From Candidatus Giovannonibacteria bacterium RIFCSPLOWO2_12_FULL_43_11c (GTDB lineage Bacteria > Patescibacteriota > Minisyncoccia > JACPKW01 > UBA11713): a DNA stretch of 47,799 bases. The stretch spans positions 5,884 to 53,682 of the forward strand of contig MFIO01000014.1 of assembly GCA_001780775.1 (NCBI GenBank), written 5' to 3'. The position numbers and the translations under genes were made by a program. The notes below the pieces were generated by a model. That model was given only the letters and a program-made list of their open reading frames with translations. It searched no databases and was not told the DNA's origin. Shown one piece after another: positions 4,569 to 28,510 of the stretch (positions within the stretch are counted from its first letter, which is position 1; the number at the start of each line of letters is the position of its first letter).

Positions 4569-4688
4569 TGATGTATTATGAAATGAATCAAATTAATAAG
4601 CAAATCTAAAAACTACCGACCGATTTTTCCGGGCAAGCTTATTTGAGAAACTGGTGATGCGGGCATTTGCACCGAAACAGTAGCCATT

Positions 4689-12626: not shown

Positions 12627-14813
12627 CTAGAAAGAAGTGAAAACATTGCTTATTATGTATGATTTTGTTTTGGCAAGTTTTTCGTAAATCGGCCGCATGA
12701 CTTCTTTGAAGCCGGAATCCCTTATTGAAATATTGAGAGTAATAACGAGCAGTCTCGGGCTCAAGTTAGACGTTTCTCCATGAATAGTGACTGTATATAG
12801 TCCGGAAGGCGTGTTGGGTGGAACGGTAATAGAGAAAGAGGAACCAGTGCTATATTCCTCCTCGGAGAGTATCGTATCGGAAAAATTTCCAACCGCGCCC
12901 GCAATCGCTGGATTAATATTTTCGAGGCTTAGCGTCACATCCTTATCAAAACACTCGCACGGAGGCAATGGAACAACGGTAATTTGAACCGTATTAGAGG
13001 TAACGGCCCCAGAACCGGAAATCGTCAAAAATAGAGAATCCGAATTTAGGGAATATAAATTAAAGTCTGGCGGTAATGTGCATTGCGATTCGTCGAATTT
13101 ACAAGTAGAAGCATCGTAACTTAATGATCCTCCTGTAAATCCGCGCGAAGAGCAAGTTGCCCCTCCCAAGCATTGGCTGGAAGGATTTCCTATTTCAGCC
13201 GCCGAAAGAGCGCGGTCGTAGATGCGAACATCGTCGAAGGAGCCTTCGAATTGATAACCGCCTTCAAGAAATCTCCCCAGCATTGAATGTGTGCATGTGT
13301 TATCTAGATTCCCGGATACGTCCCTGATTGCGTCTTGATTTCCATCAAGATAGAGAATCATCTGTGTTGAAGTCTTAACGCCAACAACATGATGCCATGT
13401 TCCTGCACTTACTGCAGTTGTTCCGTCAAGATCGGCAAATCCCAGACGAAAAGAGTAGGTTCCATTAGCCAGTAAATCAATATAGTAACAAGGGAATCTG
13501 CTGGCAGTATGCTTCTGCGCGCCAATCACATCCGCCTTTGCCCACATAGAAATAGTAATTTCATCGCCTGATATATCGAGATTCGAACCGGTTCCAAAAT
13601 CAACATAATCATCCTCCCCGTCAAAATGCAAAGCGCCACCAATCTTACCTGTAGTCCATGCTGGATCATAAGTGAGTACCCCCGTATTTCCGTTACCGGA
13701 AGAATCACTTGCCGTTGTTCCAGAGTCATCAAGCTTCCACCAGGCGACGGGATTTGTCGGTCCGGCATCACAATCTTCTCCTGCATCAATAACTCCATTG
13801 CCGCACAGCCCCTGTTGTTGACCGCTCACAAAATTAATATCAAAAGCAATAGACGCACCGTTGGGCAACAATTGAGGAATTGGCGGCGTCACGGAATCAT
13901 ATGTCGCGCCCGCAGGACCGCCACTCAAATAATTTAATGCGTAAGTTTCATCTGCTACAACATCTTCATAAGTAAAAGGTACGGAAGAATTACTGATGTC
14001 TCCTGATGGACCGGACAAAGTATAAGTTACGGCATTGCTTCCGCTTGCCGGCCACGGCTGGCCATTTAAAGTGGCCGTAACATAAATGCTGGTCGCAATA
14101 CCACTATAAAGTTCACTAACCTCTCCGGCCGAAAGCACACGGTTGTAGATGCGGACATCATCGATGGACCCCTTGAATAAATTGGCACCATTCGAGGCGC
14201 TTCCTATGGTTGTCCCCTGTATGCCAGATGAACCATAGCCACCTGCGCTGGAAATCGGATGGATTGTGCCATCAATATAAACCAAAAAATTTGAGTTTGT
14301 CGTGGCGCCTTGGCCATTGTATGTAACTGTAATATGGTGCCAGGCATCAGTCAGCGTCGCCAGGTCATCATCTGTTTTAATTGTTGTCCAATCGCTCGCC
14401 GAGCCCATTGAAAAACCGAGATAACTAGAGTCGGCAGAGAATAAGAAATGAAGTCCGGAGTTGGTATTTGTGCGTAAAAGAATTAAATCAGGGTAATTGC
14501 CTAATGCGGATGAATCCAGATAATACCATGCGCTCATAGTGAAAGGGCTTCCGGTATTGGCATATGCCGTTGTGCCAGCGACATCTACTCCATCATCCAC
14601 CCCGTCAAAACTCAACGCATTTGATCCGATTTTGCCAGCAACAAAACTTGGACCGCCGATAAGTGTTCCATTATTTATACCAGCGGAGTCATTGGCATTT
14701 CCATCAAACTTCCACCAGCCAACGAGGCCGGCTGTCACATCCGCGTGAGCCGGGCGGATAAATCCGCTCATTAAAAACAATGAAACAATGGCGAATTTTA
14801 GAAAGTTTTTCAT
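12627..14813 (-). CDS. Secreted surface protein with two LamG/concanavalin-like domains, a Cys-rich repeat and a C-terminal Ig-like domain
   Basis: Signal peptide (AHA-D); two W(W)KxD...WHH...DDVRIYxRxLSAxE LamG_3-type units; CGNGVIDAGEDCD. Confidence 0.85.
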   Translation of the reverse strand: MKNFLKFAIVSLFLMSGFIRPAHADVTAGLVGWWKFDGNANDSAGINNGTLIGGPSFVAGKIGSNALSFDGVDDGVDVAGTTAYANTGSPFTMSAWYYLDSSALGNYPDLILLRTNTNSGLHFLFSADSSYLGFSMGSASDWTTIKTDDDLATLTDAWHHITVTYNGQGATTNSNFLVYIDGTIHPISSAGGYGSSGIQGTTIGSASNGANLFKGSIDDVRIYNRVLSAGEVSELYSGIATSIYVTATLNGQPWPASGSNAVTYTLSGPSGDISNSSVPFTYEDVVADETYALNYLSGGPAGATYDSVTPPIPQLLPNGASIAFDINFVSGQQQGLCGNGVIDAGEDCDAGPTNPVAWWKLDDSGTTASDSSGNGNTGVLTYDPAWTTGKIGGALHFDGEDDYVDFGTGSNLDISGDEITISMWAKADVIGAQKHTASRFPCYYIDLLANGTYSFRLGFADLDGTTAVSAGTWHHVVGVKTSTQMILYLDGNQDAIRDVSGNLDNTCTHSMLGRFLEGGYQFEGSFDDVRIYDRALSAAEIGNPSSQCLGGATCSSRGFTGGSLSYDASTCKFDESQCTLPPDFNLYSLNSDSLFLTISGSGAVTSNTVQITVVPLPPCECFDKDVTLSLENINPAIAGAVGNFSDTILSEEEYSTGSSFSITVPPNTPSGLYTVTIHGETSNLSPRLLVITLNISIRDSGFKEVMRPIYEKLAKTKSYIISNVFTSF

Positions 14814-15403
14814 TTATTTAAATTCACATAGCTTATAACAATATCTGACCCCGCCGCTATTTTTACGGAAGAACGGATGGTTATATTTATTTGCTCGGAC
14901 GCTTTTTTAAAATATAAAAATGAAATAGAATCGCCATTATTAGAAGAATTAACGACATCCCAGCCGTTATCTTTAGCCCATTTAGTATAAAAATCGAAAT
15001 TCGCTTCCGGACTTTTTGACGAAATAAATTCTACTGTAGCTTGCTTCGCTGGAGAATTAGGATAGGTCGCCGAATAAGATCCTGTGATTGCGGTTTTTGA
15101 GTTTAGAGTTAAATTTTTTGGAAAACCTCCGGCTACTTCTTTGGGAGGCGCTTGAGTTATATTCGGGACAACAATATTCTTAGCCGGGCTTTGGGGTTCT
15201 TCCGAAGCAGCTTTCTTCCTTTGCAAAAAAACTGCTGGATCAACAAAATAAAAAATAACAATTACAAAAATTAATACTCCAGCAATGCCGATAATCCGAA
15301 GATATTCTTTCTTTATAAATTTAATATCCTGCTTTAAAAAAGACTTTAACCCCTTTCCTTTCCTTTTGACTTTGGAGTAATCTTCTGCGAGAAAATGTCT
15401 CAC
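14810..15403 (-). CDS. Hypothetical single-pass membrane protein
   Basis: Basic N-terminus, TM helix and a soluble domain (FPKNL...FYTKWAKDNGW); 4-nt overlaps with both neighbours. Confidence 0.7.
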   Translation of the reverse strand: MRHFLAEDYSKVKRKGKGLKSFLKQDIKFIKKEYLRIIGIAGVLIFVIVIFYFVDPAVFLQRKKAASEEPQSPAKNIVVPNITQAPPKEVAGGFPKNLTLNSKTAITGSYSATYPNSPAKQATVEFISSKSPEANFDFYTKWAKDNGWDVVNSSNNGDSISFLYFKKASEQINITIRSSVKIAAGSDIVISYVNLNK

Positions 15404-17223
15404 AGTGATGCGTTCGAAGTTTGGATAAATGGCGAAACAAAATTCGCGAACGCTTCAAGGATCGGCCTAAGTGTCTCCCTGAAGCCGGGGTCTTTCAGGG
15501 CGACGTTAAGTGTGACATCCACGCTATTGTTGCGAACAGGGTCATCGCTACGTCCATGAATTGTAATGGTGTACGAGGGTGGAGATGGGGTGGTATTGGA
15601 TGGAATCGTTATACTAAATAAAGTCCCTGCTGAATATTCCGACTGAACAAGATTCATATCCGAAAAATTAAAAGTCGCACCGGTAATTGTGGGGGAAATT
15701 TCCACATCGCTTGCTGAAAACGTTATGTTATCAGAAAAACCTCCCCAAATAGTACTCACATATATTCTGCTACTAGATGTAACGGGACTTGAACCTTTTA
15801 TGGTCGCGAAGATGGAAGGAGGATTTGCAGAGAGAGAATAATCGGGAGGCTGTGGAGGTAAAGGCGCCGTATAATGCCACCATAAGTCAGAATACCCGCC
15901 AGCAGGCACATCAACGGTTACGGAATTCCCGGGCGTCGGTGCATTATTATGACAAGTAGTGACGTTGTAACATAGCGTATAGCCCACGCTCCACCCGGCC
16001 GGCACGCCTACAGAGACCACATGAGAACCTGCGGAAACATTAGAAAACATATAAGGATTTACATTTGTTTGCCTATCAACAACAGATCCGACAAAGTCAA
16101 TACTTGGATCAAAATTGGTTACATCGCCAATATTGTTTCCGCGTTTATTAATTACAAAATCGATATTGTCATTGGGAGAAACTGGCGTATTAATATCATA
16201 ACTAATCCCTGTAGTATTTCCATTCTCAATAGTTCCTTGCCATAAGATTGCGTTATTTTTTTTAATGAATATAATAACGCCATCCCCAGTAGGAAAGCCG
16301 TCGCTCGCATTTCCAGTTATATGTATTGTGCCGACGCCAGGAGCAACCCATCTCCTCACCACATCCAAGGCTCTTTCAGGATGCCCTTTAGAGGACCAGA
16401 GCCGGTTCCAGTTATAACGTGGTGGGGGAAATACTTCTAATCCGCGCCAACTATTAGACATATCATAGCCAGTTGGATCGCCCACTAAATCATAAACCAT
16501 CTGATTGCCGTTTGATTCAAGATAGTACCAATTTCTTTGACCCTGTGTAGAAGAAAAATCAGTGGAAGCCTTGTAAAGAGTATTGACGTTGTTATAAAGC
16601 GTTACAGTTTCATTAGCCGGAGGCACGGCTGTTTGATTATTGCCAGGCATTAACACTTTGTATCCTTGGATGGTTCCGGTGGTAGGAAGGCAATTCGGAG
16701 TGGTAAATGTGCCTGAACTAATTACATGGCCTTCATATATTCCAGCGACCGGGTCGACATTATAGAAAAAATGTTGACCAGTTACAGGGGAATTTGCTGT
16801 GCGGTACCTAACAAAATATTCATACGCAGTATTGGATTTCGCCGAAGGAGTCGGTGGACCAGGGTTTGTTGCGTCCCAAATGTAAGAACCGCTACACGGC
16901 AGATTTTCATCCACACTGCGAGAAGTTAAAGGATCGCCCATTATATTTACCCGAATCCAAACAGATTCACATGCAAGATCCAATGGGTTGCCGCCATCAG
17001 ACCACGAAAAGGAAACTGAAGGCGCGTTACCAGCGCATGTGGACATTGCGCTTGAGGATCCGCATGCTGGAGCAATAAAACCTTCGCCGACTTTTTCTAT
17101 AAATTTTGAATCCAAAGCCGCCTCACCAGATTTTCCGAGAGAAAAAAATAAAATTCCCGAAGCCGCGACGGCGCCAAGGACCAGAATTAGGCCAAAAACA
17201 TGCCTAGGAAAGCTTTTCCCCAT
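15400..17223 (-). CDS. Membrane-anchored or secreted modular beta-rich surface protein
   Basis: N-terminal hydrophobic helix, FN3-like segment (NTAYEYFVRY), jelly-roll-like segment (FSSTQGQRNWYY...HP...VRRWVAP...GDGV), and a C-terminal domain homologous to that of 12627-14813. Confidence 0.75.
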   Translation of the reverse strand: MGKSFPRHVFGLILVLGAVAASGILFFSLGKSGEAALDSKFIEKVGEGFIAPACGSSSAMSTCAGNAPSVSFSWSDGGNPLDLACESVWIRVNIMGDPLTSRSVDENLPCSGSYIWDATNPGPPTPSAKSNTAYEYFVRYRTANSPVTGQHFFYNVDPVAGIYEGHVISSGTFTTPNCLPTTGTIQGYKVLMPGNNQTAVPPANETVTLYNNVNTLYKASTDFSSTQGQRNWYYLESNGNQMVYDLVGDPTGYDMSNSWRGLEVFPPPRYNWNRLWSSKGHPERALDVVRRWVAPGVGTIHITGNASDGFPTGDGVIIFIKKNNAILWQGTIENGNTTGISYDINTPVSPNDNIDFVINKRGNNIGDVTNFDPSIDFVGSVVDRQTNVNPYMFSNVSAGSHVVSVGVPAGWSVGYTLCYNVTTCHNNAPTPGNSVTVDVPAGGYSDLWWHYTAPLPPQPPDYSLSANPPSIFATIKGSSPVTSSSRIYVSTIWGGFSDNITFSASDVEISPTITGATFNFSDMNLVQSEYSAGTLFSITIPSNTTPSPPSYTITIHGRSDDPVRNNSVDVTLNVALKDPGFRETLRPILEAFANFVSPFIQTSNASL

Positions 17224-17254
17224 GTCTTTATTATACTACTTCTATAAAAATTCT

Positions 17255-18043
17255 TTACAGCGCTTTATCAACAGAGCTCCTTTTCAAATTTTCCTCAATC
17301 GCCCGCTTAAAATCCGAAAAGCCTTTTTCCGATTCAGCCGGATTATTGCCGGGATAGGCCCTTGACCATTCTTCTAGGGTAATGGTTTCTGCGAGCTCCC
17401 GCGCTTTCCTAAACGACGCCTCTGCTGTTTTGTATTTTCTCAAATTAAGTTCTGCGACCCCGAGTGAATTCCAAAGCCATGAATTTTCTTCCGATTTATA
17501 GACATCTTGAAATGCGATCTCAAGGGCGTCTTCCGCCTCTTGATATTTGCCTTGCTTCAACAAAACCCACGCCAGATCGTTGTGGCCAGCCCATTCCTTC
17601 GGAGCCCAGCTGACAAAATTTCGAAAATCCTTCTCCGCGCTATTAAAGTTTCCGTTATAAGAATTTATAAGCGCGCGGATATAAAGCGCGCGGAGATTTT
17701 CGGGATTCGCGTCTAATTCCTTATTTATCTCGGATAAGGCCTTGATTCGCTCCCCCCTTACAAGATAAATTCGCGCCAATTGATAATGCCCCCAAAGAAT
17801 TTTCGAATCTATTTGAACCGCTTTTTTAAAAGCTCTCTCTGATTTTTCCAAATCATACCCGCCGGCTCCGTTGAAATAATGATTCCCGATTTCCAGCGCA
17901 AGCTTGTCGTCCTTCGTCAAAATAATCGCCGCCCTCGCATTGCGATATTTTTGCCAAGCAATTGTAGCCAGCGCGTTCTGCGACAACAAAAACCCAAACA
18001 GCAAAACCGCGAATACCGACATCCATACATCACGGGGTTTCAT
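17255..18043 (-). CDS. Tetratricopeptide-repeat protein with an N-terminal signal/TM
   Basis: Repeated TPR-like helical pairs (HYQLARIY, ALYIRALI, HNDLAWVL..G.Y.EA, WNSLGVA). Confidence 0.85.
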   Translation of the reverse strand: MKPRDVWMSVFAVLLFGFLLSQNALATIAWQKYRNARAAIILTKDDKLALEIGNHYFNGAGGYDLEKSERAFKKAVQIDSKILWGHYQLARIYLVRGERIKALSEINKELDANPENLRALYIRALINSYNGNFNSAEKDFRNFVSWAPKEWAGHNDLAWVLLKQGKYQEAEDALEIAFQDVYKSEENSWLWNSLGVAELNLRKYKTAEASFRKARELAETITLEEWSRAYPGNNPAESEKGFSDFKRAIEENLKRSSVDKAL

Positions 18044-18111
18044 AATATTATCTATATTGCATCTGTTTTCCCAGTAAGTAAAAAATCAGTATTCTTAGCA
18101 TTCTAAAGAAA

Positions 18112-19266
18112 TCAACTACCAGTAAAAGCTTCTTCAGACTTCTTCAGTTGCACGCGAAATTTTTCCTCGTCGAATTTTAGCAGTTCCTGTGCTACCCACC
18201 CGCTCATGAGCGTGGCCTTTGTATTCTCCCCTTTTTTAAAATTGCTTAAGAATCCGTAATCCCCGTCAAACTTAACTTCTTCTTCACTATCCCACAAATG
18301 CAAAACAACGCTACGCATCAAAGCGAGGGCGTCATCGCGATAGCGACTATTCTGATTATTTTCCATTTCCGCCAATATAAGAAGTGAGTCAATAATTTTC
18401 GCGAAATTTTGGATGTCCAATCGCCTTCGAAGCTCTCGCAGATGAACCTTCAAATTAGCTTTATCGTAAAAATCTTTGGCTGCTATCAAATATTTTTCAT
18501 CTTTGGTCGCAGAATAAGCAGGGAGGTATACAGACCAAACAGCCTGAAAAGAACCTACTTTGACTATAAAGCCGTTGTCTTCATAGAGAGGTTTTTTTTG
18601 ATCGGTAGATTCAATGCCCCTATTTAGAACTTCGTCCGCAACATGGCGCAATCGATCAATATATTTCCTCTCGGAAGTAACTTCGTAAAGCATCGCGAGT
18701 TTATTTCCGTAGTTTCCGCCAACCGCGTCTTTTAATGGCACTTTATCATCTAAAAATCGCCCGGAGACAGCAAGCATTGCATCCAAGTATTTCTTGTCTC
18801 CGGTATCTTTATAATAACGATAGAGCGGGAAAAAGTTCCACTCGCAGTAATTTTTATCGAGTTCATGGCACAATTTTATAGACACTTCCAAAGCCTTATC
18901 AGCCTTTTCCTTATACGTATTGTCGCCCGTTCTTTTTGTTAATTCGTAATAGGCCAAAATAATCTGCCCGGTATGCGGTGGCTCTTCGATCGGCGCTTCG
19001 CGGCACTTCTTCTCTTCTCTAGATTCCGGGTCGCATTGATAGCGAATTACGAACATCCCGTTTGGCTTCGAACTCATGTCCAGAAATTGCGCCGTTCTTT
19101 GTGCAATTTCAACTCCGCTTAGCTCTAAAAGAGGTTTCCTTTCGTCCTTGCCCGCAAAAAAATCATACAAAACATAAATTAAAACCAGAGAAAACACTGC
19201 TAACAGGGCTAAAAAAAACTTATTTTTATTGTCTCGAATATTTCCTACTTCCATCTTAATTTTCAT
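18112..19266 (-). CDS. Membrane-anchored alpha/alpha-barrel protein (six-hairpin glycosidase/LanC/AGE-like fold), paralog B
   Basis: TM anchor; four repeats of the [LA]Y..T.D.KY-type helical-hairpin motif; paralog of 19559-20728. Confidence 0.65.
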   Translation of the reverse strand: MKIKMEVGNIRDNKNKFFLALLAVFSLVLIYVLYDFFAGKDERKPLLELSGVEIAQRTAQFLDMSSKPNGMFVIRYQCDPESREEKKCREAPIEEPPHTGQIILAYYELTKRTGDNTYKEKADKALEVSIKLCHELDKNYCEWNFFPLYRYYKDTGDKKYLDAMLAVSGRFLDDKVPLKDAVGGNYGNKLAMLYEVTSERKYIDRLRHVADEVLNRGIESTDQKKPLYEDNGFIVKVGSFQAVWSVYLPAYSATKDEKYLIAAKDFYDKANLKVHLRELRRRLDIQNFAKIIDSLLILAEMENNQNSRYRDDALALMRSVVLHLWDSEEEVKFDGDYGFLSNFKKGENTKATLMSGWVAQELLKFDEEKFRVQLKKSEEAFTGS

Positions 19267-19281
19267 CCATTATAAAAAACA

Positions 19282-19539
19282 CTAACCGCCACAACCTGTT
19301 TTTGAAGGTGGAGGACTGCTCCCTGTATCAGCCATGGCTTCATTTACTATTACGGCACGTAAAAACTCGGAAGATTTTTTGTCCACATCCGTTAAGCTAG
19401 TAAAAAGCTTTCTTTTATACGCACTAAAGGTATCTATTAAAAACTTTCCCCCAAAGCGATACGCCAACGTTGGAACTGCCAAAAACACAAAAATCAAGAC
19501 AAGCGACAGATCGGCCTTTATAAGTTTAGTGTTTCGCAT
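19282..19539 (-). CDS. Small membrane-anchored peptide ending AMA-DTGSSPPPSKTGCGG (candidate precursor/substrate)
   Basis: 85-aa ORF filling the gap between the two paralogs (19- and 15-nt spacers), same strand; hydrophobic segment then a Ser/Thr/Pro/Gly tail with terminal CGG. Confidence 0.7.
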   Translation of the reverse strand: MRNTKLIKADLSLVLIFVFLAVPTLAYRFGGKFLIDTFSAYKRKLFTSLTDVDKKSSEFLRAVIVNEAMADTGSSPPPSKTGCGG

Positions 19540-19558
19540 AGATAAAGTTTAAGATATT

Positions 19559-20728
19559 TCACGGACTCTGTCCATCCGTAGGGGGTTCAAAACTATCGTC
19601 GAGCATTCTAAGATATAGCTGTATTAACCAACCGCTATAGAACGGAGACTTGTTATTCTTGCTTTTATTTGCAGCGTGTAAAAACCCATAATCCGCATTA
19701 AACTGTCTGTTGTATTGCGAGTCCCATCTTTCATTAAGGATATGTTGGCCAATCGCCTTGGCCTGCGCATAAAATACCTCCGGGTCGTCATCGGGTTCAT
19801 CGTGGGATGCTAAAGCCTCAGGCACAGTGCGCATACTACCTTGCAAATCGCCATAATGCGGGTTTCGACCTTGAGCAATTTCAGTAAGATCTAAAAGAAC
19901 TTCCCACGCCTTAGCAAGATTTCCAATGCCCAGCCCAGCGCCTGAATCAAATTTGCCAAGATGTTCGGTAATGTGCGACTTCTCAAAAAAATCCTTAACT
20001 GCGTTAAGATATATTACATTCTGAGTTTCGGCGTAAGCTGGGAGGTAAACGCTCCAAATGATATGGATATCATTATTCCTTACTACATAATAATCGCTGG
20101 TTACAAAAAACTCTAAGCCGCGAGAGAATTTCCCGTCTAATATATCTTTTGCTGTTTTATCAAGCTTATCAAGATATTTTTTTTCTCCCGTAACATGGTA
20201 AAGCGCGGCCAGTTTAATGCCGTTGTTGTTATTCACGGTATTTTCCAGCGATTCATTCAAAAACTTATCCGCAGATTTTAACATAGCTTTCTTAAAACGA
20301 TCGTCCTTGAAATCCATGTAGAAATCGTGGAGTGCGAAGTAATTCCATTCGCAGTAATCAGAATTTTTCTCGCAAGCATCTAACACAAAACCCATGGCGC
20401 GATCAGCTTTTTCTTTATATTTTGGATCACTGGTTGTTTTCCATAAATGATAATACGCGCGGAGAATTTGCCCAGTATGCGGAGGCCCGGACGATTCGAT
20501 GGCTTTGCAAGCGCTATCATTTTTTGTACACTCGTATAATAATTCAAAACTGCCGTCTGGTTTCAAAGTTTTATCAAGAAATAAGGCAGTTTTTTTGGCA
20601 ATTTCCAGCCCCGTTAGACGCTTTCCCGCTTTGACCCCAATAAATTCCGGCAAATATACCGCCGCGTAATACATCAGGGCGATCGCGAAAACAGCCGAAG
20701 CCGCCAAAATTATATTCTTCTTCATCAT
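19559..20728 (-). CDS. Membrane-anchored alpha/alpha-barrel protein, paralog A
   Basis: TM anchor; shares EIA..TA.FLD...KP.G.F, PPHTGQI..AYY, YKEKAD.A, YCEWN.F, WSVYLPAY, WDS, DYGFL and SGW with 18112-19266. Confidence 0.65.
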   Translation of the reverse strand: MMKKNIILAASAVFAIALMYYAAVYLPEFIGVKAGKRLTGLEIAKKTALFLDKTLKPDGSFELLYECTKNDSACKAIESSGPPHTGQILRAYYHLWKTTSDPKYKEKADRAMGFVLDACEKNSDYCEWNYFALHDFYMDFKDDRFKKAMLKSADKFLNESLENTVNNNNGIKLAALYHVTGEKKYLDKLDKTAKDILDGKFSRGLEFFVTSDYYVVRNNDIHIIWSVYLPAYAETQNVIYLNAVKDFFEKSHITEHLGKFDSGAGLGIGNLAKAWEVLLDLTEIAQGRNPHYGDLQGSMRTVPEALASHDEPDDDPEVFYAQAKAIGQHILNERWDSQYNRQFNADYGFLHAANKSKNNKSPFYSGWLIQLYLRMLDDSFEPPTDGQSP

Positions 20729-20750
20729 AAAATTATAAATCTTTTAGGTC

Positions 20751-22022
20751 TCAAAACCAAACAAAAATATCGCCATGCGCCTCAAATGCTTGGACTTTCT
20801 TAACGTCGAATTGTATCAAACCTTCATCTATAAAATGCTTGAGAGGAAAGTTTCTTTTAATAATCCATCTGTTCGCTATATGATCCGGATCTATAAAGCT
20901 TTTTGAGTTCGCCTTATCATCCAAATATTCCAATGAAATCCTAAGAGTAGCTTTGTTTTTTTGAGAGAAAAGCTCCGTAACATGAATCTGAAATTGAAAA
21001 TCTACATGGTGAATAGAAAATAAAACGTTCTTTAACTGGGCGATGTCCAGCTTGATTCCCTCAAAATGAAACTCCTTGTCTACGCTACCGACTACCCTTA
21101 GGAATTTTTTGCCGCAAGCGCAAATCTCGTCTTCCCAAATACCAAGATCAGAAGTCTTATATCTCACAAGGGGCAAAAATCCGTGTTTTTTTATTGAGCT
21201 TACGATAATGTTGCCGGGTTTGCGGATAGCTCCTCCTTCGCGCAACAATTCAACGAACATATCATCATATAAATGAAATAGATTGGGATCCTCGTACGGC
21301 GCCTTTCTGCATCTGTAGCCAACAATATTGCCGCCGATAATGCGGTAAGCATTTTCGACAACGGCATGCGGGTAAAAATTACTAAGGTTTTGCAAGCGGA
21401 AAAAAGAAAGATGTCCAGTCGGGACAAAAATGAATTTGATGTATTCCCCAGCGCCTGTAATATCCATTTCTTTCCCCAAATTCAGCGCATTTTGATAAGA
21501 CGCAATAAGGCTGTCGATTTTAAGATAATCAGCAAGCACCGCTGTGTATTTCATGGCATGAGGATCACCGATTATATGTAATAATTTAAGCTTACGGCAA
21601 ACTCTAGCTAGCCTATTGGTAAATGAGCTTGGCGTCAAAGTAATCGCCCCACTTATATTCCTTTCCGAAAGAATTTCGAGCGTCTTCTGGGAAGCACTTC
21701 CGTATTCATCTGAAACTTTAGCGAAATTCAAAAAGCCGTAGCGCTCCTCTATTGTTAAGAGACCAGAAAAATTATCCTTCCAAGATCCAGGACCGTGAAT
21801 TGATTCGTAATGCATCCTGATTGCCATGTCAATATTATCGTTCGTCAGTACGGGAATTTTTTCTATATCAATAAAGTTCTCAATAGACAATTTCCAATCA
21901 AAGCCTGCTTGCTTGTACTTATCTCTATAATAGGAATTTTCATCGCCTGCAACGCTTTTCAAGAAATCATTAAAAAAGCGTAATGCCGATTGGCGTTCTT
22001 CGTCTGTATATATTTCATTCAT
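20751..22022 (-). CDS. Phenylacetate-CoA-ligase (PaaK)-like ANL protein, degenerate
   Basis: YYRDKY...IEKIPVLT, PLVRYKTSDLG and CACG are present; the TSGTT loop is absent and the hinge GR reads GS. Confidence 0.7.
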   Translation of the reverse strand: MNEIYTDEERQSALRFFNDFLKSVAGDENSYYRDKYKQAGFDWKLSIENFIDIEKIPVLTNDNIDMAIRMHYESIHGPGSWKDNFSGLLTIEERYGFLNFAKVSDEYGSASQKTLEILSERNISGAITLTPSSFTNRLARVCRKLKLLHIIGDPHAMKYTAVLADYLKIDSLIASYQNALNLGKEMDITGAGEYIKFIFVPTGHLSFFRLQNLSNFYPHAVVENAYRIIGGNIVGYRCRKAPYEDPNLFHLYDDMFVELLREGGAIRKPGNIIVSSIKKHGFLPLVRYKTSDLGIWEDEICACGKKFLRVVGSVDKEFHFEGIKLDIAQLKNVLFSIHHVDFQFQIHVTELFSQKNKATLRISLEYLDDKANSKSFIDPDHIANRWIIKRNFPLKHFIDEGLIQFDVKKVQAFEAHGDIFVWF

Positions 22023-22060
22023 TTTTATATATCCTTAATTTCTATTATACCAAAATTAAT

Positions 22061-22936
22061 TTATCCCAAACGAAAAGAAGGAATACCGCAACTGCACGAG
22101 CCAGCCACAGAATACAATAGTATATTAGTTTGATAGCGTATCATTGGGCAAGCTTGAAGACGAGAAGAAGTTATAACGGCTATGCCGGGCTCTATAAAAA
22201 CATCATTGAAGGGGTGGAATACAAAATCCATGTCCCGGTTTGATTCAGGGCATTTAAAAGCTAATCGCCCCGTTTCAGGGAGGCTTAAGATATAGTCAAT
22301 AATGATGCCTTCAGGCCAGTGCCAGTCGGTATAACAAAATTGAGAATCAATAAGCGTTATGCTTTTTAATGGGAGTTTCGCTCTAATTAAGTCGTGCTTA
22401 TAGTGATCTATCGAATATCTATCGAGAAAAATGCTATCCGCCTCGTATTGCTTCGATACAGAAAATATAAGTTCAGAATTCGGGATTTCTCCAATCAATG
22501 GGATAAGATTCTGCTCATAAATATAGACGCAATGTTCTAATGCTTCATATATGTCCCCCATCAGAACTAGAGGGCGTTTACCGTTTATCGGCAGACCACT
22601 CTTTTTTATCTCATCAACAGTCCTGTGCAATAAAAAAGACCTTTCTGCTTCTGGAGACTTAATCAGTTTATATACGGCGGGACCTTCACCATAAATTCTG
22701 TCGTGGTAAAACGTTAAGGCAAGCTCCTGCCTCGTCACAATAGGCAGCTCTCTTAAAAAATCGTAATTCAAATTGTCTGGCAAATCCGAAAAACTTATTT
22801 TTAATCCTTTTTTCTTATATTTTTCACGATAAAAATCTGCGGGTGCCGACAGAACCGTCTTTAAAAGGTTCGAAAACTGACTTAAAAAAACTTTTTCCGA
22901 ATTATTCGTTGAGTTGCAAATCCTAGTGTCAAGCAT
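22061..22936 (-). CDS. PaaK-like ANL protein, short and degenerate (N-terminal domain only)
   Basis: FYREKY...LRELPIVTRQEL, LPETG, FHP, PMIRYQT and CSCG; ends just after the CxCG motif; no TSGTT. Confidence 0.65.
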   Translation of the reverse strand: MLDTRICNSTNNSEKVFLSQFSNLLKTVLSAPADFYREKYKKKGLKISFSDLPDNLNYDFLRELPIVTRQELALTFYHDRIYGEGPAVYKLIKSPEAERSFLLHRTVDEIKKSGLPINGKRPLVLMGDIYEALEHCVYIYEQNLIPLIGEIPNSELIFSVSKQYEADSIFLDRYSIDHYKHDLIRAKLPLKSITLIDSQFCYTDWHWPEGIIIDYILSLPETGRLAFKCPESNRDMDFVFHPFNDVFIEPGIAVITSSRLQACPMIRYQTNILLYSVAGSCSCGIPSFRLG

Positions 22937-22964
22937 TTGAAATTGGGTTAAGCTTCGTTATAAT
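22937..22964 (+). promoter_or_regulatory. Sigma70 promoter of the 54-aa ORF
   Basis: TTGAAA-16 nt-TATAAT, 14 nt upstream of ATG 22979. Confidence 0.5.
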
Positions 22965-22978
22965 TATATATATTGAAT

Positions 22979-23143
22979 ATGCCTTACTACATCCTCAAAA
23001 AACTATATGCAATAATGACTGATCTCCTCGCCAAATGGCGAGGCCATTTTAATAAGGATGACGAAACTGAATCACAGCCCACACCCAAAAAAGAAAATCC
23101 GAACGCAAAACTTTTCATAAGCTGTGGCGGTTTCATAGAATAG
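22979..23143 (+). CDS. 54-aa small protein MPYYILKKLYAIMTDLLAKWRGHFNKDDETESQPTPKKENPNAKLFISCGGFIE (not in the ORF track)
   Basis: Manual translation ATG 22979 to TAG 23143. Has its own promoter-like motif, fills the intergenic gap and stops 3 nt from the convergent gene's stop. Confidence 0.6.
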   Translation: MPYYILKKLYAIMTDLLAKWRGHFNKDDETESQPTPKKENPNAKLFISCGGFIE

Positions 23144-23146
23144 ATT

Positions 23147-24481
23147 TCATACAATTTTTCTTAAAACAAGCCGCTTGTTTTTTGGCGGAAAATCTTCAAC
23201 AAAATCCAATTTAAGGGGTAAAAACTTATTTTTCTCAACCAAGCTTGCGATGGTATCCGTGGGAGTTATAAATAAATTTTTACTGACAAAATTTGAAATA
23301 AATTTGCTCTTATTATGTTTTTCAGACTTATCGCTAAACTTTAACTTAAGAAGGAGCTCTCCAAGTACGCCATCTCCAACAAGAACCTCGCGAGCCTCTC
23401 CCTCCCAATCATCTATCCAATCACGAATAGCATCTAATGACAATACTCTTTCTATCTCACTTCGCATAATAACAGCGCCTCCGCATTTAATATAATCAAA
23501 ATCTTTCCGACCCGCTAGAGCAAAGCTCCAAAAAGCGCCGCACTTGCATTTTTTGAACGATGCCTTTGCAATGTCCCCTGTTCGATACCTAAGAAGCGAA
23601 AATAGAGCATCATCTCTGTCAGAAAAGCGCGTACAAACAACCTCCCCGTATCCATCTTCGTTCACATCAACTATTTCAATTATTGCACTTTCTACCGGAT
23701 GATAAACATTTACGCCTTCTTCCTGTTGCAAATGGAAACACGATGCGCCAATCATCCCGGCTTCGACTGAGCTGTACTGACTATCCAAACTGATTGAATT
23801 AACTCCTTGTTTGCCATAAAATTTCAACAAGTTATCGAGTTGTGGCTTACTTACAAAATCCCCAGTCAATGCCATGCCTTTCACGGATGAAATTAGAGAA
23901 AATTCGTCATCCAAGAAAATTGAAGAAAAATTTACCAAATGCGTTGGGAAAGCGAAAATAAAGTCCGCATTAAAATCCGCAATCGCATATTTTGCGCTGG
24001 CGTTAAGTTGGTTTGGTAATAATGTAAATTGATGGCACTTGCCCCCATTTCTTTTGCTTCCCGAGATTGCTACAAGCAACCCGCGCAAATTATGGGAGAA
24101 TGACCCGGTAATCCTTAAAGACCTTTGAGGCGCCAAAAAAAATTGAGGAATTTCATTTATAAGAAGTACTGGCTCCGTAGATTTTGTTGTTCCAGATGTA
24201 GTGCGGAGAATATATTTGTATTTATAGGCATCTCCTCCAGCGCTGTTTTCAAAATCGTCCCATAATGTTGCGAAGCCTATATCTATGAAATCTTTTTTCG
24301 TCAAGAAAGGAATCTCCTTCCAACGTTCCCAATTAAAGTCCGAAAAGGCCGGCTGAAATTTTTTGTTCACAAAATGACTACGCCAAAATTTTAGCTTATC
24401 AAGTTTTTCCAACGCCGAACCAACGAACTCTCGCTCTTTTTCAAGTTCCTCATGGGTTTTCAAAATTATTTCGCTTGGCAT
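23147..24481 (-). CDS. PaaK-like adenylate-forming enzyme with intact motifs (start revised to ATG 24481)
   Basis: IPFLTKKD, RTTSGTT, LTGD, YSSVEAG, RYRTGD, CKCG, LAGRKD, EIE and a C-terminal K-rich segment. The ATG lies 2 nt after the upstream stop. Confidence 0.85.
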   Translation of the reverse strand: MPSEIILKTHEELEKEREFVGSALEKLDKLKFWRSHFVNKKFQPAFSDFNWERWKEIPFLTKKDFIDIGFATLWDDFENSAGGDAYKYKYILRTTSGTTKSTEPVLLINEIPQFFLAPQRSLRITGSFSHNLRGLLVAISGSKRNGGKCHQFTLLPNQLNASAKYAIADFNADFIFAFPTHLVNFSSIFLDDEFSLISSVKGMALTGDFVSKPQLDNLLKFYGKQGVNSISLDSQYSSVEAGMIGASCFHLQQEEGVNVYHPVESAIIEIVDVNEDGYGEVVCTRFSDRDDALFSLLRYRTGDIAKASFKKCKCGAFWSFALAGRKDFDYIKCGGAVIMRSEIERVLSLDAIRDWIDDWEGEAREVLVGDGVLGELLLKLKFSDKSEKHNKSKFISNFVSKNLFITPTDTIASLVEKNKFLPLKLDFVEDFPPKNKRLVLRKIV

Positions 24482-24483
24482 AC

Positions 24484-25851
24484 TTATTCCACGACGAATA
24501 ACTCGCCCCAATCCTTCGCCCGGTACGAAGGTCCTAAAAATATTTCTCGTAGGTCCTCTTTTCCGACATCCTTCCTTATATCATCTAGGGTTTTATATAT
24601 TGAGCCTCCGGCGAATCTACTCCCGACAAAATTGGGCCTTTCTTCCAATCTCCAAACGCTACGATTAAAAGGTAGGAAAAAAAGGCTAGGATAACTCCGC
24701 ACGATAAACACATAAGAAAGAGGATTCAATACGCCGCTTGCCGCTTCAATCTTTGCCATACGCAAAAAAGTTTGCTCATGAATAACTCCGTTCCAGAAAA
24801 ACAAGTCCAAAAGGCTTGATTTTTGGCTTAAAACAAGAAACTTGTCTAAAAATTTTCGCCTCCAATGCAAGTCGGCGATAGAAGCCAAATCTGCCTGATA
24901 CGTAAAATCTCGAACCGAATAAAAAGTTGTTGCCGATTGATGCCAAAATCTGATACCTCTTTTGATTAGCGGTTCATAGATTGAAATACCCTCATGAAAT
25001 TTGTACTTGGCTGGATCGATTTCAAGAAAAAAATATTCATCTGCGAGAGTGATACGCAAAAATTTTTTATCCGCTTCAGGTGATTTCAAAATGTACAGAT
25101 AAAATTGATGATTTTTAGGCCGACCGTCAAAATGTGAAAGTGTATAATAAATCGGGCCGTATCGTTCTAAAATACTCGGCATAACATCTTCCTCGAGCGA
25201 AAGTATGAAGTCTGATTCCGCTGTTAGTTTAGGCCCGACAAGCTCGAAAGGAATATAATCCATGCGAGGAACAGTTTCCAGTAAATCTTGATCAACCTTA
25301 ACATTGTCTTTTTTTGAAGCAATCGCCGAATTAAGCAATAACTGCAAGCGAAACAAAATCTCTGCTCGTAAGATTTTCCCATTCTCAGCCAGTAAATCAA
25401 TGGACTTTAGAACATCACTTAAATTTACAGAGTACTTATTATAAATATACTCCGGATTACTGCGTTCAAGACGCTCCATTCGTATAAAAGCAAGATGGGC
25501 TTTTTTATAAGAAGAAACGTCACCTTCCCATGAAGCGAGAGCGTGCCAATAGCTATTAATAAGTCTTCTGGCCGAAGCGGCAGAAGGTTCTGCCAGAAAT
25601 ATTCTCCGCCTTTTTTCACACTCGATAAAACTACGCAAGAAATTAAATGGGTGAAGAGTTTTTAAAAAAGAATGGCGAAAATGAAACCAATATTCTTTCT
25701 TGGTTTCTCGGTATAATTTTTCTAAACGCGAAGTGGTTTGATAAAGTTCTCCAATGGCCGCTGACGCATTTTCCAAATCCATTCCTTCTGCGGCAAAAAG
25801 AGGGTCGCCTTTTGTTTTAATATAAAATTCCTGAAGTGACGGTGGAATCAT
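24484..25851 (-). CDS. Hypothetical protein (455 aa), first gene of the PaaK-like operon
   Basis: Long ORF, no TM, no motif I recognise; coupled to the downstream ligase. Confidence 0.75.
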   Translation of the reverse strand: MIPPSLQEFYIKTKGDPLFAAEGMDLENASAAIGELYQTTSRLEKLYRETKKEYWFHFRHSFLKTLHPFNFLRSFIECEKRRRIFLAEPSAASARRLINSYWHALASWEGDVSSYKKAHLAFIRMERLERSNPEYIYNKYSVNLSDVLKSIDLLAENGKILRAEILFRLQLLLNSAIASKKDNVKVDQDLLETVPRMDYIPFELVGPKLTAESDFILSLEEDVMPSILERYGPIYYTLSHFDGRPKNHQFYLYILKSPEADKKFLRITLADEYFFLEIDPAKYKFHEGISIYEPLIKRGIRFWHQSATTFYSVRDFTYQADLASIADLHWRRKFLDKFLVLSQKSSLLDLFFWNGVIHEQTFLRMAKIEAASGVLNPLSYVFIVRSYPSLFFLPFNRSVWRLEERPNFVGSRFAGGSIYKTLDDIRKDVGKEDLREIFLGPSYRAKDWGELFVVE

Positions 25852-25887
25852 TTATTTACTTTACATTAATTTATTAACTTTAAAAAG

Positions 25888-25926
25888 AATACCACACTGC
25901 CTATGACAATATGACAATGTGGTATT
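25888..25926. terminator. Inverted repeat with an internal tandem repeat, downstream of the symporter
   Basis: aataccaca...tgtggtatt arms enclosing tatgacaa x2; A-tract on the left (U-tract on the minus strand). Confidence 0.45.
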
Positions 25927-25953
25927 ATCGTAAAACTGAATCTCCTTTCTTCG

Positions 25954-27384
25954 CTATGAAAGCGACTTGAAATCGAATGGTCTTTTGTTAGTAAGGCCGC
26001 TAAGTAGCGCCGCTCCAAGTGTAATGCTTATTGGAACAAGCGCGCCAACTGATGAGACTGTGGAATTCTTTACAATCGAACCGTACACGAATAACGGAAC
26101 TCCGATGGCAATACCGAGGAGTATGCCTCCGAAAGTAAACCTTGAAGAAGGTCGCGGCCAAAATAGGGACAAGACCGTGGGAACAAGAAGAGAAGATCTT
26201 AAAACTCCCACCAAAAGGATCAAATAAAGGAGCTGGATTGTCGGGATAAGCGCGATCGACATGCCGACAAGGATGAGAACGGCCATAGCGCTTCTTGACG
26301 CAATCAAAATAGCGCGATCGGAAGCGTTAGGCCGAAAAGAGCGGAAGACATCCACGGCGCCTATCGAACTTATCGCGGCAAGCGCGGAACTTCCCGCTGC
26401 CACAAGCCCGGCAAGCACCATCAGAGTAAAGCTAATTACCCCTATATCGGAAAGCGCTCCAATAGCCATAGAGAATCCAGCAAGCTGGGGATTTTGAACT
26501 AATGTCTGCAGATTTTTGTTTGCAGCCAAAAATCCCAAGGCTCCCAGCATTATTGGCACAATAGCAAAGATTAATCCCCCAAGAAGAAATGCCCTCCTGC
26601 TAATGCCTTCCTTCATTGAGAAAGCCCTTTGCCATTGTTGCTGGTCAATCATGATGCCGGATATTAACGACACGCTGACTGGAACCCCAAATGTCCAAGC
26701 GACAGTCGGATTAAATAGATCAGAAAAGGTGCCGCTTTTCCCGCCAATCCCTGAAATCAAAGCCGAAATGCCTCCCCTTTCCGCAATCACAAAAGGAACA
26801 ATCCAGAAAACAACGACGGCTATGAAGCAAGCCTTGATTACGTCTTCCACGAGCGACGAACGTATACCCTTAAGAACGCTCAATGATACCATCATGCCGC
26901 CCAAAATCAAGATCAGCAACTGCTTGGAAATCCCCATCACCAAATTCAGCATCAGGAGCGCCGCAGTCAAATTGAAAATGATCGCGTAGCTCTGAACGAT
27001 GAATATAGTGGCGACATACAGAACCCGCATTTTTCGGTCAAAGCGGCGCCCTATAAATTCCGGGAGGGTAAAGCCCTGATTGAAAACTTTACGCATTCTC
27101 GCCGCCATGAAGGAAAAAAGAATCAAAGCAAGCGCATTCGGGAAAGTAAACCAAAAAAGACCCGGGATTCCTTGCTCGAAAGCCTTTTGCGATGAAACAA
27201 AAAGCGCTCCTGCCCACACCCAAGCAACAGCAGTCGTTACCGCCCCAAGCAAAAGACCTACATTCCTCTCTGAAACCAGGAAAGAAGCGGGGGTTGCCCT
27301 CGCTCCTGAAACCGCACGAATGGAAATCCAAGAAAAAAACCAGAAACCTGCCAAAATCCAATACCCGCTGATCGTGTCAACCAT
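25954..27384 (-). CDS. Sodium:solute symporter family transporter (DUR3/PutP-like)
   Basis: About 13 TM; FLVSERNVG, AWVWA, GFTLPEFIGRRF, GIRSS...D and DQQQWQRAFS; strong SD GGGAGG. Confidence 0.85.
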   Translation of the reverse strand: MVDTISGYWILAGFWFFSWISIRAVSGARATPASFLVSERNVGLLLGAVTTAVAWVWAGALFVSSQKAFEQGIPGLFWFTFPNALALILFSFMAARMRKVFNQGFTLPEFIGRRFDRKMRVLYVATIFIVQSYAIIFNLTAALLMLNLVMGISKQLLILILGGMMVSLSVLKGIRSSLVEDVIKACFIAVVVFWIVPFVIAERGGISALISGIGGKSGTFSDLFNPTVAWTFGVPVSVSLISGIMIDQQQWQRAFSMKEGISRRAFLLGGLIFAIVPIMLGALGFLAANKNLQTLVQNPQLAGFSMAIGALSDIGVISFTLMVLAGLVAAGSSALAAISSIGAVDVFRSFRPNASDRAILIASRSAMAVLILVGMSIALIPTIQLLYLILLVGVLRSSLLVPTVLSLFWPRPSSRFTFGGILLGIAIGVPLFVYGSIVKNSTVSSVGALVPISITLGAALLSGLTNKRPFDFKSLS

Positions 27385-27532: not shown

Positions 27533-28510
27533 ATGCCGTATAGCGATTTGAGATCGTATTTGGAAGTTCTCGAAAAATGCGGAAAGTTGCGCCGTATCAG
27601 AAAAGAGGTTGATGCAAGTTGGGAGATAGCTGCGGTATGCCGCCAGCTATTCTACAAATTCCAGCCTAAGGAGCGCCCAGCCATTATTTTTGAAAATCCC
27701 AAGGGGTATGGCATTCCGGTTGCCGCAGGAACGGCGGCCGCTTCTCCCGAAATTTATCAGATCGGGATGGAGGCGAATTCGCTTGAAGAGATCAATCAGA
27801 AATGGGATCATGCGCTCGAAAATTTGATTCCACCGCGAATCGTTAAGGAAGCATCGTGCAAGGAAAATATTCTTCTTGGCGAGAAAATTGACTTGTCTAT
27901 ATTCCCTGTGCCAACCTGGACGCCTGGGCTGGATGCCGGACCGTATATAACTTCCGCGCTTGTTATCACAAAGGATCCGGAAACTGGCACATACAACATC
28001 GGAACCCACCGGATGATGATAAAAGGGAAAGACGTTACGGGAATGCACATCGGGAGCGCTCAAGACGCAGCGCGGCACATCGAGTGGTATGAAAAACAAG
28101 GCAAGCCCGCGCCCGTTGCAATCGCTCTCGGAACCGATCCCAGTCTCTGTTATGTCTCGACGACCCGCACCCACGAGCACGTTGACGAATTCTTCCTAGC
28201 CGGCGGACTTAGAGGCGAGCCGGTTGACCTGGTCCCGTGCGAAACAATTCCGCTTCTTGTCCCCGCGACAGCTGAAATTATTCTTGAGGGAGAAATTCCC
28301 GCCGGGACACGGGAAATGGAAGGACCCTTTGGAGAATATACCGGCTATATGAGTCCGAGCGGTATGCGCAGAATCTTTCGGATAAAATGTATTACTTTTC
28401 GCAACAATCCGATTTATCACGCGTTTATCAGCCAGATGCCGCCGTCGGAATCGAGCTGCATCCGGAAAATCGGGAACGAGCGCATAATTTTCCATACCTC
28501 CTCATCATAA
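27533..28510 (+). pseudogene. UbiD-family (prFMN-dependent) decarboxylase, C-terminally truncated
   Basis: DLRSYL, PAIIFEN, DAGPYIT, NIGTHR, VPATAEIILEG, EGPFGEYTGY and PPSE. Only 325 aa; stops shortly after PPSE, where family members continue into the C-terminal domain. Confidence 0.75.

Follow-up and report, generated by a model that had tools for sequence, protein, structure and literature searches.

A stretch of 47,799 nucleotides (nt) from contig MFIO01000014.1 of Candidatus Giovannonibacteria bacterium RIFCSPLOWO2_12_FULL_43_11c, hereafter the window, carries on its minus strand an open reading frame (ORF) for a peptide of 85 amino acids (aa), lodged between two genes for paralogous, transmembrane (TM)-anchored (alpha/alpha)6 barrel proteins. 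From its layout and the location of its gene, this peptide would fall into a very rare group of small proteins encoded beside TM-anchored barrels in ultra-small groundwater bacteria. The recurrence of both position and architecture in three lineages indicates that it is probably a new form of membrane-anchored, precursor-like small protein. The explanation that we favour, as a tentative one, is that the ORF encodes a real, lineage-restricted single-pass membrane peptide, perhaps cleaved and bearing a cysteine, that works together with the barrels outside the cell. The evidence for this is positional and architectural, and we keep the claim correspondingly modest.

Architecture of the peptide and its recurrence beside barrel genes

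The sequence-only reading that drew attention to this ORF had placed it between the two barrel paralogs and described its layout, and in both respects the minus-strand frame and its translation agree (Table 1). The peptide starts with a basic N-terminus, followed by a hydrophobic helix, a charged spacer and NEAMADTGSSPPPSKTGCGG at the C-terminal end, and its sole Cys is residue 83, third from the end. The earlier remark that there is no beta-grasp fold is borne out by the AlphaFold2 model, which, at low confidence (predicted local distance difference test, pLDDT, 54.8), consists of a single helix from residue 4 to residue 68 and then a disordered tail. In this low-confidence model the helix stops exactly at the A-x-A motif. 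The best 19-residue hydrophobic window, residues 6-24, defines the TM segment, and the charge on its two sides, net +3 in the N-flank vs +1 in the C-flank, favours an N-in/C-out orientation. The A-x-A had been put forward as a signal peptidase I consensus; the motif, with the Asp that follows it, does recur in the look-alikes described below, but A68-M-A70 lies ~44 residues beyond the TM segment, which is too far for a textbook site. Pfam and NCBIfam scans gave no match for the peptide.

Table 1. Coordinates of the peptide ORF, its parts and the adjoining genes in the window
Feature	Position	Strand	Remarks
Peptide ORF under study (small, membrane-anchored)	19282..19539	minus	ATG start, TAG stop, 85 aa
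N-terminal hydrophobic (TM) segment, codons 6-24	19468..19524	minus	Kyte-Doolittle 19-residue window 2.07
A-M-A-D, codons 68-71, within N-x-A-x-A-D; closes the predicted helix	19327..19338	minus	read from sequence
15-residue Ser/Pro/Gly/Thr-rich tail, codons 71-85, end C-G-G	19285..19329	minus	predicted disordered
TM-anchored six-hairpin (alpha/alpha)6 barrel, 384 aa	18112..19266	minus	directly downstream of the peptide, 15-nt spacer
TM-anchored six-hairpin barrel paralog, 389 aa	19559..20728	minus	directly upstream of the peptide, 19-nt spacer
Three tandem PaaK/F390-synthetase-like adenylate-forming paralogs	20751..24511	minus	upstream of the barrels; context only

Judged on its own evidence, the ORF is equivocal as a gene. 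It fills 258 of the 292 bases between the barrel genes, and the two spacers that are left resemble those of neighbouring genes; of the 504 pairs of adjacent co-directional ORFs with 120 aa or more, 16% are separated by 292 nt or more. In codon usage the frame scores 0.089, more than the other five frames and more than 82% of off-frame chunks. An antisense ORF of 72 aa overlaps it, and a scan of positions 17000-26200 for promoters and terminators found nothing informative at the ORF (28 promoter-like sites vs 21.2 +/- 4.8 in shuffles, and 11 terminator-like sites vs 9.9 +/- 3.1). A protein identical to the peptide is called on 25 contigs; the stretch (18000-21000) is present in 9 DNA runs from 6 studies, all of them flagged as possible sources, and no RNA run was listed for it; no variants within the ORF were seen in the contigs of 4 of these DNA runs. 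It is the comparative evidence, set out next, that favours the ORF being a gene.

Three features named by the sequence-only reading ahead of any search, an N-terminal TM segment, AxAD and a Cys in the last four residues, served as criteria for ORFs of 50-120 aa. The organism's own genome (796,513 bases in 35 contigs, rated 99% complete) has 2571 such ORFs, and the peptide under study is the single one that combines all three. When all the small ORFs around barrel homologs were listed at 12 other loci, 10 from metagenomes and two distant ones from genomes (L027 and L028), together 73,187 nt, the combination was found in 2 of 246 ORFs, both of which directly adjoin barrels. The expected count is 0.008-0.02 (Poisson p 3e-5 to 2e-4).

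Both of these look-alikes come from metagenome loci (2 of the 10). The one on L014 (658..885; also P0010) is a 75-aa peptide encoded 12 nt upstream of a barrel, with an N-terminal TM segment, AQAD and a Cys/Ser/Thr-rich tail of 27 residues that contains three FDTG repeats and ends CCGC. The one on L015 (2033..2284) is 83 aa long if counted from the first start codon and 77 aa if its relatives' start is taken; its gene is flanked on either side by a barrel paralog, both of them on the other strand, and it has a TM segment, AHAD and a Pro/Asp-rich tail with a terminal Cys. Protein searches added P0011 (70 aa, ending DCGC) and P0012 (68 aa, ending DGC), which are known from protein only. These two and the L015 peptide are 64-76% identical, with AxADAPP and the final Cys invariant, a well conserved front part and a tail of variable length, and on this alignment the L015 type is a conserved gene. 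Thus there are three independent groups of peptides (window, L014 and L015 type), and in two independent lineages, the window and L015, the small ORF sits between two barrel paralogs. What the window peptide and the look-alikes have in common is the AxAD, with Asn, Asp or Glu two residues before it, and a Cys at or next to the C-terminus; the tails of the look-alikes are 17-27 residues long with Cys at the end. The charge bias for N-in/C-out is clear for the L015 type and mild for the window peptide.

The comparison of ORFs beside barrel homologs had been proposed by the sequence-only reading as its own check, with conservation expected of AxAD and of a terminal Cys/Gly. TM segment, AxAD and terminal Cys do return in L014, L015, P0011 and P0012, but the Gly-Gly is absent from them, so that a C-terminal adenylation handle of the ThiS/ubiquitin-like kind finds no backing in the comparison: the window peptide ends CGG and the look-alikes end CCGC, GDC, DCGC and DGC. 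The last codon of the window's CGG is one base away from giving CGC. As an observation on the L015 locus, two paralogous membrane proteins (1-786 and 3410-4774) flank its barrel-peptide-barrel unit, and the product of 1-786 has a weak Pfam match to HTTM (vitamin-K carboxylase-like; E = 0.0035).

The same counts bear on the idea that the ORF is there by chance or codes for an unremarkable small protein, exported or in the membrane, in either case unconnected to the barrels and with an A-x-A plus Asp that merely looks like a signal-peptidase site. We regard this as rather unlikely, while noting that much of the setting would suit it. The window is one long co-directional gene array in which many neighbours are secreted or anchored proteins, and such arrays are normal in these genomes; the conventional signal peptide of the 12627..14813 product ends PAHADV; at L016, L018/L019, L020 and L027 the barrel gene is followed by one for a secreted protein of larger size, in which an Ala-rich site precedes an Asp/Gly-rich start; and the coding score of the ORF is weak. 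An ORF of this kind would not be expected, however, to show an architecture that occurs once in 2571 ORFs genome-wide, yet twice beside barrels in 73 kb of unrelated contigs, or to stand between barrel paralogs in two independent lineages. Moreover, Asp follows the first AxA in just 3 of 60 long own-genome ORFs with an N-terminal hydrophobic segment and AxA, and is not a usual feature of the exported proteins of this genome.

Several results weigh against placing the window peptide in one group with the look-alikes, and against its being a gene that works with barrels. A word-indexed search of 5.8 billion clusters recovered only the 85-aa peptide itself, and 60 related genomes gave nothing credible, the best other match having E = 0.0019 and an internal stop. 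A profile built from the four other peptides, with the window peptide left out, ranks the latter 6th of 4861 own-genome ORFs (E = 1.8), although the aligned stretch spans the helix end, the AxAD and the Cys with their order kept. Sequence homology to the look-alikes cannot be shown by these comparisons, and in the lack of a sequence relative the grouping rests on three short features and on position. In the details, too, the peptides differ: the tail of the window peptide is neutral and ends C-G-G, whereas those of the look-alikes are acidic and end in Cys, and from the A-x-A to the TM segment it is ~44 residues in the former vs ~15-25 in the latter. The codon-usage score of the ORF is at the 7th percentile of in-frame chunks from long genes. 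Eight of the 10 metagenome loci (L012, L013, L016, L017, L018, L019, L020 and L021) have no such ORF, nor do the distant genome loci L027 and L028; it should be added that L018 and L019 are copies of one locus and that several contigs stop near the barrel. L012, the closest syntenic locus, belongs to a related organism and has four genes in common with the window, namely the histidine kinase (66.5% identity), UbiD (73%), the sodium/solute symporter (66%) and the barrel (51%), and it has a single barrel and no small ORF. Absence from syntenic loci was what the sequence-only reading had said would tell against it, and L012 is, in part, such a case.

Wider searches bring the peptides no further relatives. 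A profile search of 1.84 billion representatives yielded nothing beyond sequences already in the query alignment and close relatives of these. With a profile of the L015 type, run on another 400 genomes from the phylum, there were 9 weak matches, none with the architecture or with a barrel nearby. For the 85-aa peptide the ESM Atlas offered ATP-synthase-b-like look-alikes at 0.77, under the noise bar, and a search with P0010 found merely 21-residue TM matches in Pseudomonas. A match to P0011 (26% identity) on a high-GC Acidobacteriota contig was judged spurious when the ORFs of that contig were read. In literature searches we came upon no account of small Cys-terminated TM peptides paired with GH76-like barrels; the TMcin papers, discussed below, were the only relevant ones. 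On the strength of the look-alikes beside barrels in two other organisms, the window peptide seems to be genuine: a membrane-tethered peptide of great rarity whose cysteine sits close to the end.

The flanking barrels and a possible origin of the peptide from them

As judged from their sequences and a predicted fold, the two barrels are six-hairpin proteins that resemble GH76 and GH88 and lack the GH76 catalytic Asp pair. They are 36-39% identical to each other, each has an N-terminal TM segment, and both have weak Pfam matches to six-hairpin glycosidase families; the 384-aa copy is 39.5% identical to the barrel of L014, which likewise follows a small peptide gene. The model of the 389-aa copy is confident (pLDDT 85.4; predicted template-modelling score, pTM, 0.83). 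With it, Foldseek lists GH88 unsaturated glucuronyl hydrolases first (E = 1.7e-6, template-modelling score ~0.55) and GH76 mannanases and GH105 next, and VIA-align, among 48,161 chains, gives Z = 23.2 to 7tem, an exported protein of unknown function, followed by GH88 (21.2), cellobiose 2-epimerase (20.7) and GH76 (20.5).

A profile of 16 barrel-family sequences matches GH76 BT2949 at E = 8.9e-10, YteR-like GH105 at 6e-5 and LanC-like 2 at 0.0046, and LanC is not among the top 50 Foldseek or VIA-align rows. The likeness to GH76, GH88, GH105 and AGE-type epimerases thus lies in the (alpha/alpha)6 six-hairpin fold, and what sets the barrel family apart from all of them is its N-terminal TM anchor, four conserved Cys and great rarity. 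From the GH76 alpha-1,6-mannanases, its likeness to which extends to sequence (BT2949), the family differs in the catalytic site: the Asp-Asp of the Bacillus circulans enzyme aligns, in a weak and low-scoring stretch, to variable columns just before the conserved W-S-V-Y-L-P-A-Y of the barrels. The invariant or near-invariant positions of the family include, besides the four Cys, two Asp and one Lys. By best match the barrels are not LanC-like, GH76, GH88 and GH105 fitting them far better. We considered LanC-like cyclisation by the barrels, and also prenyltransferase-like action on a C-terminal CXC/CC motif, and dropped both since glycosidases and epimerases lead the fold searches; a distant kinship of the barrels with either of those folds remains compatible with the searches.

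The searches made here indicate that the barrel family is very rare. Homologs are present in 7 other clusters among 5.8 billion, in none of the 60 related genomes, as 2 distant matches among another 400 genomes from the class, in none of the species-representative contigs (two peptide patterns), and at 10 metagenome loci. A tree of 18 barrels places the 389-aa copy beside the single L012 barrel as its sister (98/93) and joins the two barrels of L015 as sisters (88/90); therefore the layout of two barrels with a small ORF between them arose at least twice. The peptide-associated barrels are scattered over the tree, the label needing 4 changes, which 191 of 500 shuffles equal, and this lack of a clade suits a small protein that has no tie to the barrels. 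At L027 (5349-6635), in a genome of the same family as the window's organism, a distant barrel homolog (E = 4e-17) is followed by a 428-aa secreted protein with Asp/Gly/Ala repeats at its start and an 'acidic double-disulfide repeat' at its end (NF033662, 2.7e-7). Secreted partners that are acidic and contain Cys may accompany the barrel family more generally.

The barrels are probably extracytoplasmic. Taken with the charge bias of the peptide towards N-in, their conserved Cys and their likeness to exported enzymes suggest that the tail of the peptide and the barrels share the outer face of the membrane. The explanation that we favour can then be put as follows. The peptide, anchored by a TM segment with its N-terminus inside and continuing as a long juxtamembrane helix up to N-x-A-x-A and then as a short disordered tail outside that bears one Cys, would insert into the membrane next to the anchored barrels; the tail would be displayed on this tether, or be freed by a signal-peptidase-type cut after A-x-A; and the Cys-bearing tail would be the functional end, whether as substrate, ligand or thiol partner of one or both barrels. 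A search of the genome for signal peptidase I (TIGR02227) had one match, at 20.7 bits, under the 47-bit cut-off. The picture of a membrane-tethered leader that presents a 15-aa core to the barrels, as first drawn from the sequence, survives in its predicted topology, with a TM helix, a disordered tail and an N-in/C-out bias; the chemistry it gave to the core is unsupported. Ultra-small bacteria of the Candidate Phyla Radiation (CPR/Patescibacteria) spend their lives attached to other cells, and for the majority of their surface proteins the function is unknown. A Cys-tipped tethered peptide that recurs beside rare anchored barrels would in such organisms be a compact and tractable pair.

The main rival to this explanation, an unlikely but serious one, is that the ORF is a scar: the decayed 5' part, encoding TM anchor and first helix, of a third barrel gene that tandem duplication and deletion left behind. 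The frame would then still be open, and perhaps translated, with no function of its own, and its AxAD and Cys would be coincidental or inherited from barrel positions. The place of the peptide between tandem paralogs and its low codon-usage score are in keeping with this, as is L012, where one barrel without a peptide makes the second barrel and the ORF look like recent additions in the window lineage. The barrel profile is also collinear with the peptide over its TM segment and next helix (LTDVDKKSSEFL vs the barrel LTGLEIAKKTALFL region), with E = 0.005 in a single comparison, and the window peptide comes third among the 559 non-barrel frames of the window in its match to this profile. The match of P0010 to this barrel region is the stronger one (6.0 bits, E = 2.5e-4 in a single comparison, ~1e-3 over five peptides). 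These matches hint that the peptides were born from the 5' end of barrel genes.

In a wider search, however, the scores fall to noise, with E = 2.5 among the 561 frames of the window and an hhalign probability of 1.9%, and beyond chance matches of 9-13 bases the ORF has no DNA similarity to either barrel gene. The window and L014 peptides align to the barrel in different registers, so that their AxADs would not be homologous barrel positions. The L015-type peptides are without barrel similarity (E ~0.05) and form a conserved family, and since the L015 peptide is on the strand opposite both of its barrels, it is not a same-strand duplication scar. Finally, a scar is unlikely to keep spacings of 19 and 15 nt, or to recur with a terminal Cys in three lineages. 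An origin from a barrel gene is compatible with a functional peptide as well, and if the ORF should after all be a scar, it would show on a small scale how a gene can be born from a paralog's 5' end.

The preferred reading, a functional peptide that works with the barrels, could be carried a good deal further, to a version that we consider improbable. The peptides would form a new class of Cys-ending tethered precursors, the partner barrel would have traded its glycosidase chemistry for binding or modification of the peptide tail at the surface of ultra-small episymbiotic bacteria, some lineages would have added a cytoplasmic SagD-type YcaO, and the peptide gene would perhaps have been born from the 5' end of a barrel gene.

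Neighbouring genes and the search for a maturation enzyme

The three adenylate-forming paralogs upstream of the barrels (423, 291 and 454 aa) have no Pfam match and weak NCBIfam matches (FlxY, PaaK, DVU_1553 family); the 291-aa copy ends where the C-terminal subdomain would start. A 455-aa orphan (24484-25851, minus) without family or look-alike overlaps and precedes them. The ESM Atlas has nothing for this orphan, and no similarity was found between it and the HTTM-like protein of L015. Neither the adenylate-forming paralogs nor the orphan has a counterpart beside the barrels in the 12 other loci, which leaves the barrel as the only constant partner of the small ORFs; on these comparisons, a tie between the PaaK-like genes and the peptide is not supported.

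It is in this neighbourhood that a further explanation has to be weighed, namely that the peptide is a cytoplasmic precursor of a ribosomally made peptide with post-translational modifications (RiPP). The PaaK-like enzymes, in the place of the YcaO of L014, would activate the Gly-Gly or modify Gly-Cys, and the barrel would act as cyclase or tailoring enzyme before or during export. It is favoured by the three ATP-dependent adenylate-forming paralogs, which lie upstream of the barrel-peptide-barrel unit and share its strand, and the conserved front and length-variable tail of the L015 type resemble the leaders and cores of RiPPs. SagD-type YcaO proteins are the classic maturases of Cys/Ser/Thr-rich peptides. 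On L014, a 2-kb groundwater contig, a fragment of such a gene (3-596; the C-terminal part, Pfam YcaO 1.3e-12, TIGR03604 6.9e-21) ends 62 nt upstream of the Cys/Ser/Thr-rich look-alike (658-885), which is followed after 12 nt by the barrel (898-1980). Its gene content makes this contig a candidate cluster for a thiazole/oxazole peptide whose leader would be unusual in being hydrophobic. A precedent for membrane-embedded RiPP precursors exists in the TMcins (PMC13712780).

For the window peptide itself, such a pathway is nevertheless very unlikely. The 99%-complete genome has no match to YcaO (PF02624; control positive in 5 of 14 genomes) or to DUF3267 (PF11667; control positive in 3 of 14), and none to LanC-like proteins (PF05147), a search whose control gave no signal anywhere either. 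Among the flanking proteins, Pfam and NCBIfam show no known RiPP maturase or thioether family, and no Ser/Thr dehydratase (LanB, LanM, LanKC/L), for which the whole genome was not searched; among the 11-13 flanking proteins there is no E1-like (ThiF/MoeB) adenylyltransferase. PaaK-like genes stand beside barrels in 0 of the 12 other loci, the Gly-Gly is unconserved, the window tail has a single Cys, and the barrels are GH76/GH88-like and probably extracytoplasmic. The suggestion of a thioether-RiPP-type core, made from the sequence, is not sustained by the flanking genes or the genome, where no thioether, YcaO or other known maturase was found.

A few further observations concern genes of the window that lie apart from the peptide and the barrels. 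The UbiD-family decarboxylase gene (27533-28510, plus) encodes only 325 aa, with the C-terminal third missing; it is 73% identical to residues 2-322 of the 472-aa homolog in L012, and a convergent histidine-kinase gene ends 48 nt past it. Downstream of the barrels (12627-17223, minus) are genes for a large secreted protein of 728 aa with two LamG-type domains and for a 607-aa secreted protein of no known family, and the C-terminal ~90 residues of the two are alike by eye (...TITIHG...LNV/I...DxGF.E..RPI...). PADLOC found no defence family.

Comparison with known systems

Set against known systems, the window peptide is not a ThiS-like carrier, not a demonstrable lanthipeptide or thiazole/oxazole-modified microcin (TOMM) precursor, and not a textbook signal peptide. 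With carriers of the ThiS, MoaD and ubiquitin-like kind the sole likeness is the C-terminal Gly-Gly, which none of the four look-alikes has; in place of a beta-grasp there is a TM helix, and the neighbouring ATP-dependent enzymes are ANL/PaaK-like, not E1-like. TOMM precursors are likewise short peptides, with Gly-Cys near the C-terminus and Ser/Thr in the tail, and the L014 look-alike does follow a SagD-type YcaO. TOMM leaders are soluble, however, without a TM helix such as the window peptide has, and the latter differs further in its single tail Cys and in a genome without a YcaO match. Gram-positive signalling pro-peptides such as Phr have a basic N-terminus, a hydrophobic helix, an A-x-A and a short C-terminal peptide that can be released outside, an arrangement close to the one found here. 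In Phr-type and Sec signal peptides, though, the A-x-A comes within ~10 residues of the hydrophobic segment, as compared with ~44 in the window peptide, for which neither a cognate receptor nor an oligopeptide permease was identified.

The nearest described concept is that of the TMcin precursors. In that pathway the precursor has a single TM helix, and its processing takes place in the membrane through an S2P-like protease, a DsbA-like enzyme, an escort protein and an ABC exporter (Nur, Antwi and Dickey, mBio 2026, PMC13712780). The general features of the system are cysteine chemistry on the outer side and a compact cluster with membrane proteins. In the precursor TmcA, the mature product includes the helix, which comes after a soluble leader of 45 residues, and a disulfide joins two conserved Cys (PMC13712780). 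Set beside that description, the window peptide shares just the general plan of a small, membrane-inserted precursor with one TM helix: its helix is N-terminal, at the leader end, its candidate product would be the C-terminal tail, and it has one Cys. The S2P-like DUF3267 protease (TmcP) by which the article defines TMcins was not found in the window's genome, and no ABC exporter, DsbA-like or escort gene of the kinds it describes was identified beside the ORF with Pfam and NCBIfam. If the peptide and the barrels do work as a pair, they would extend membrane-made peptide natural products, as exemplified by the TMcins, to another architecture and another partner fold.

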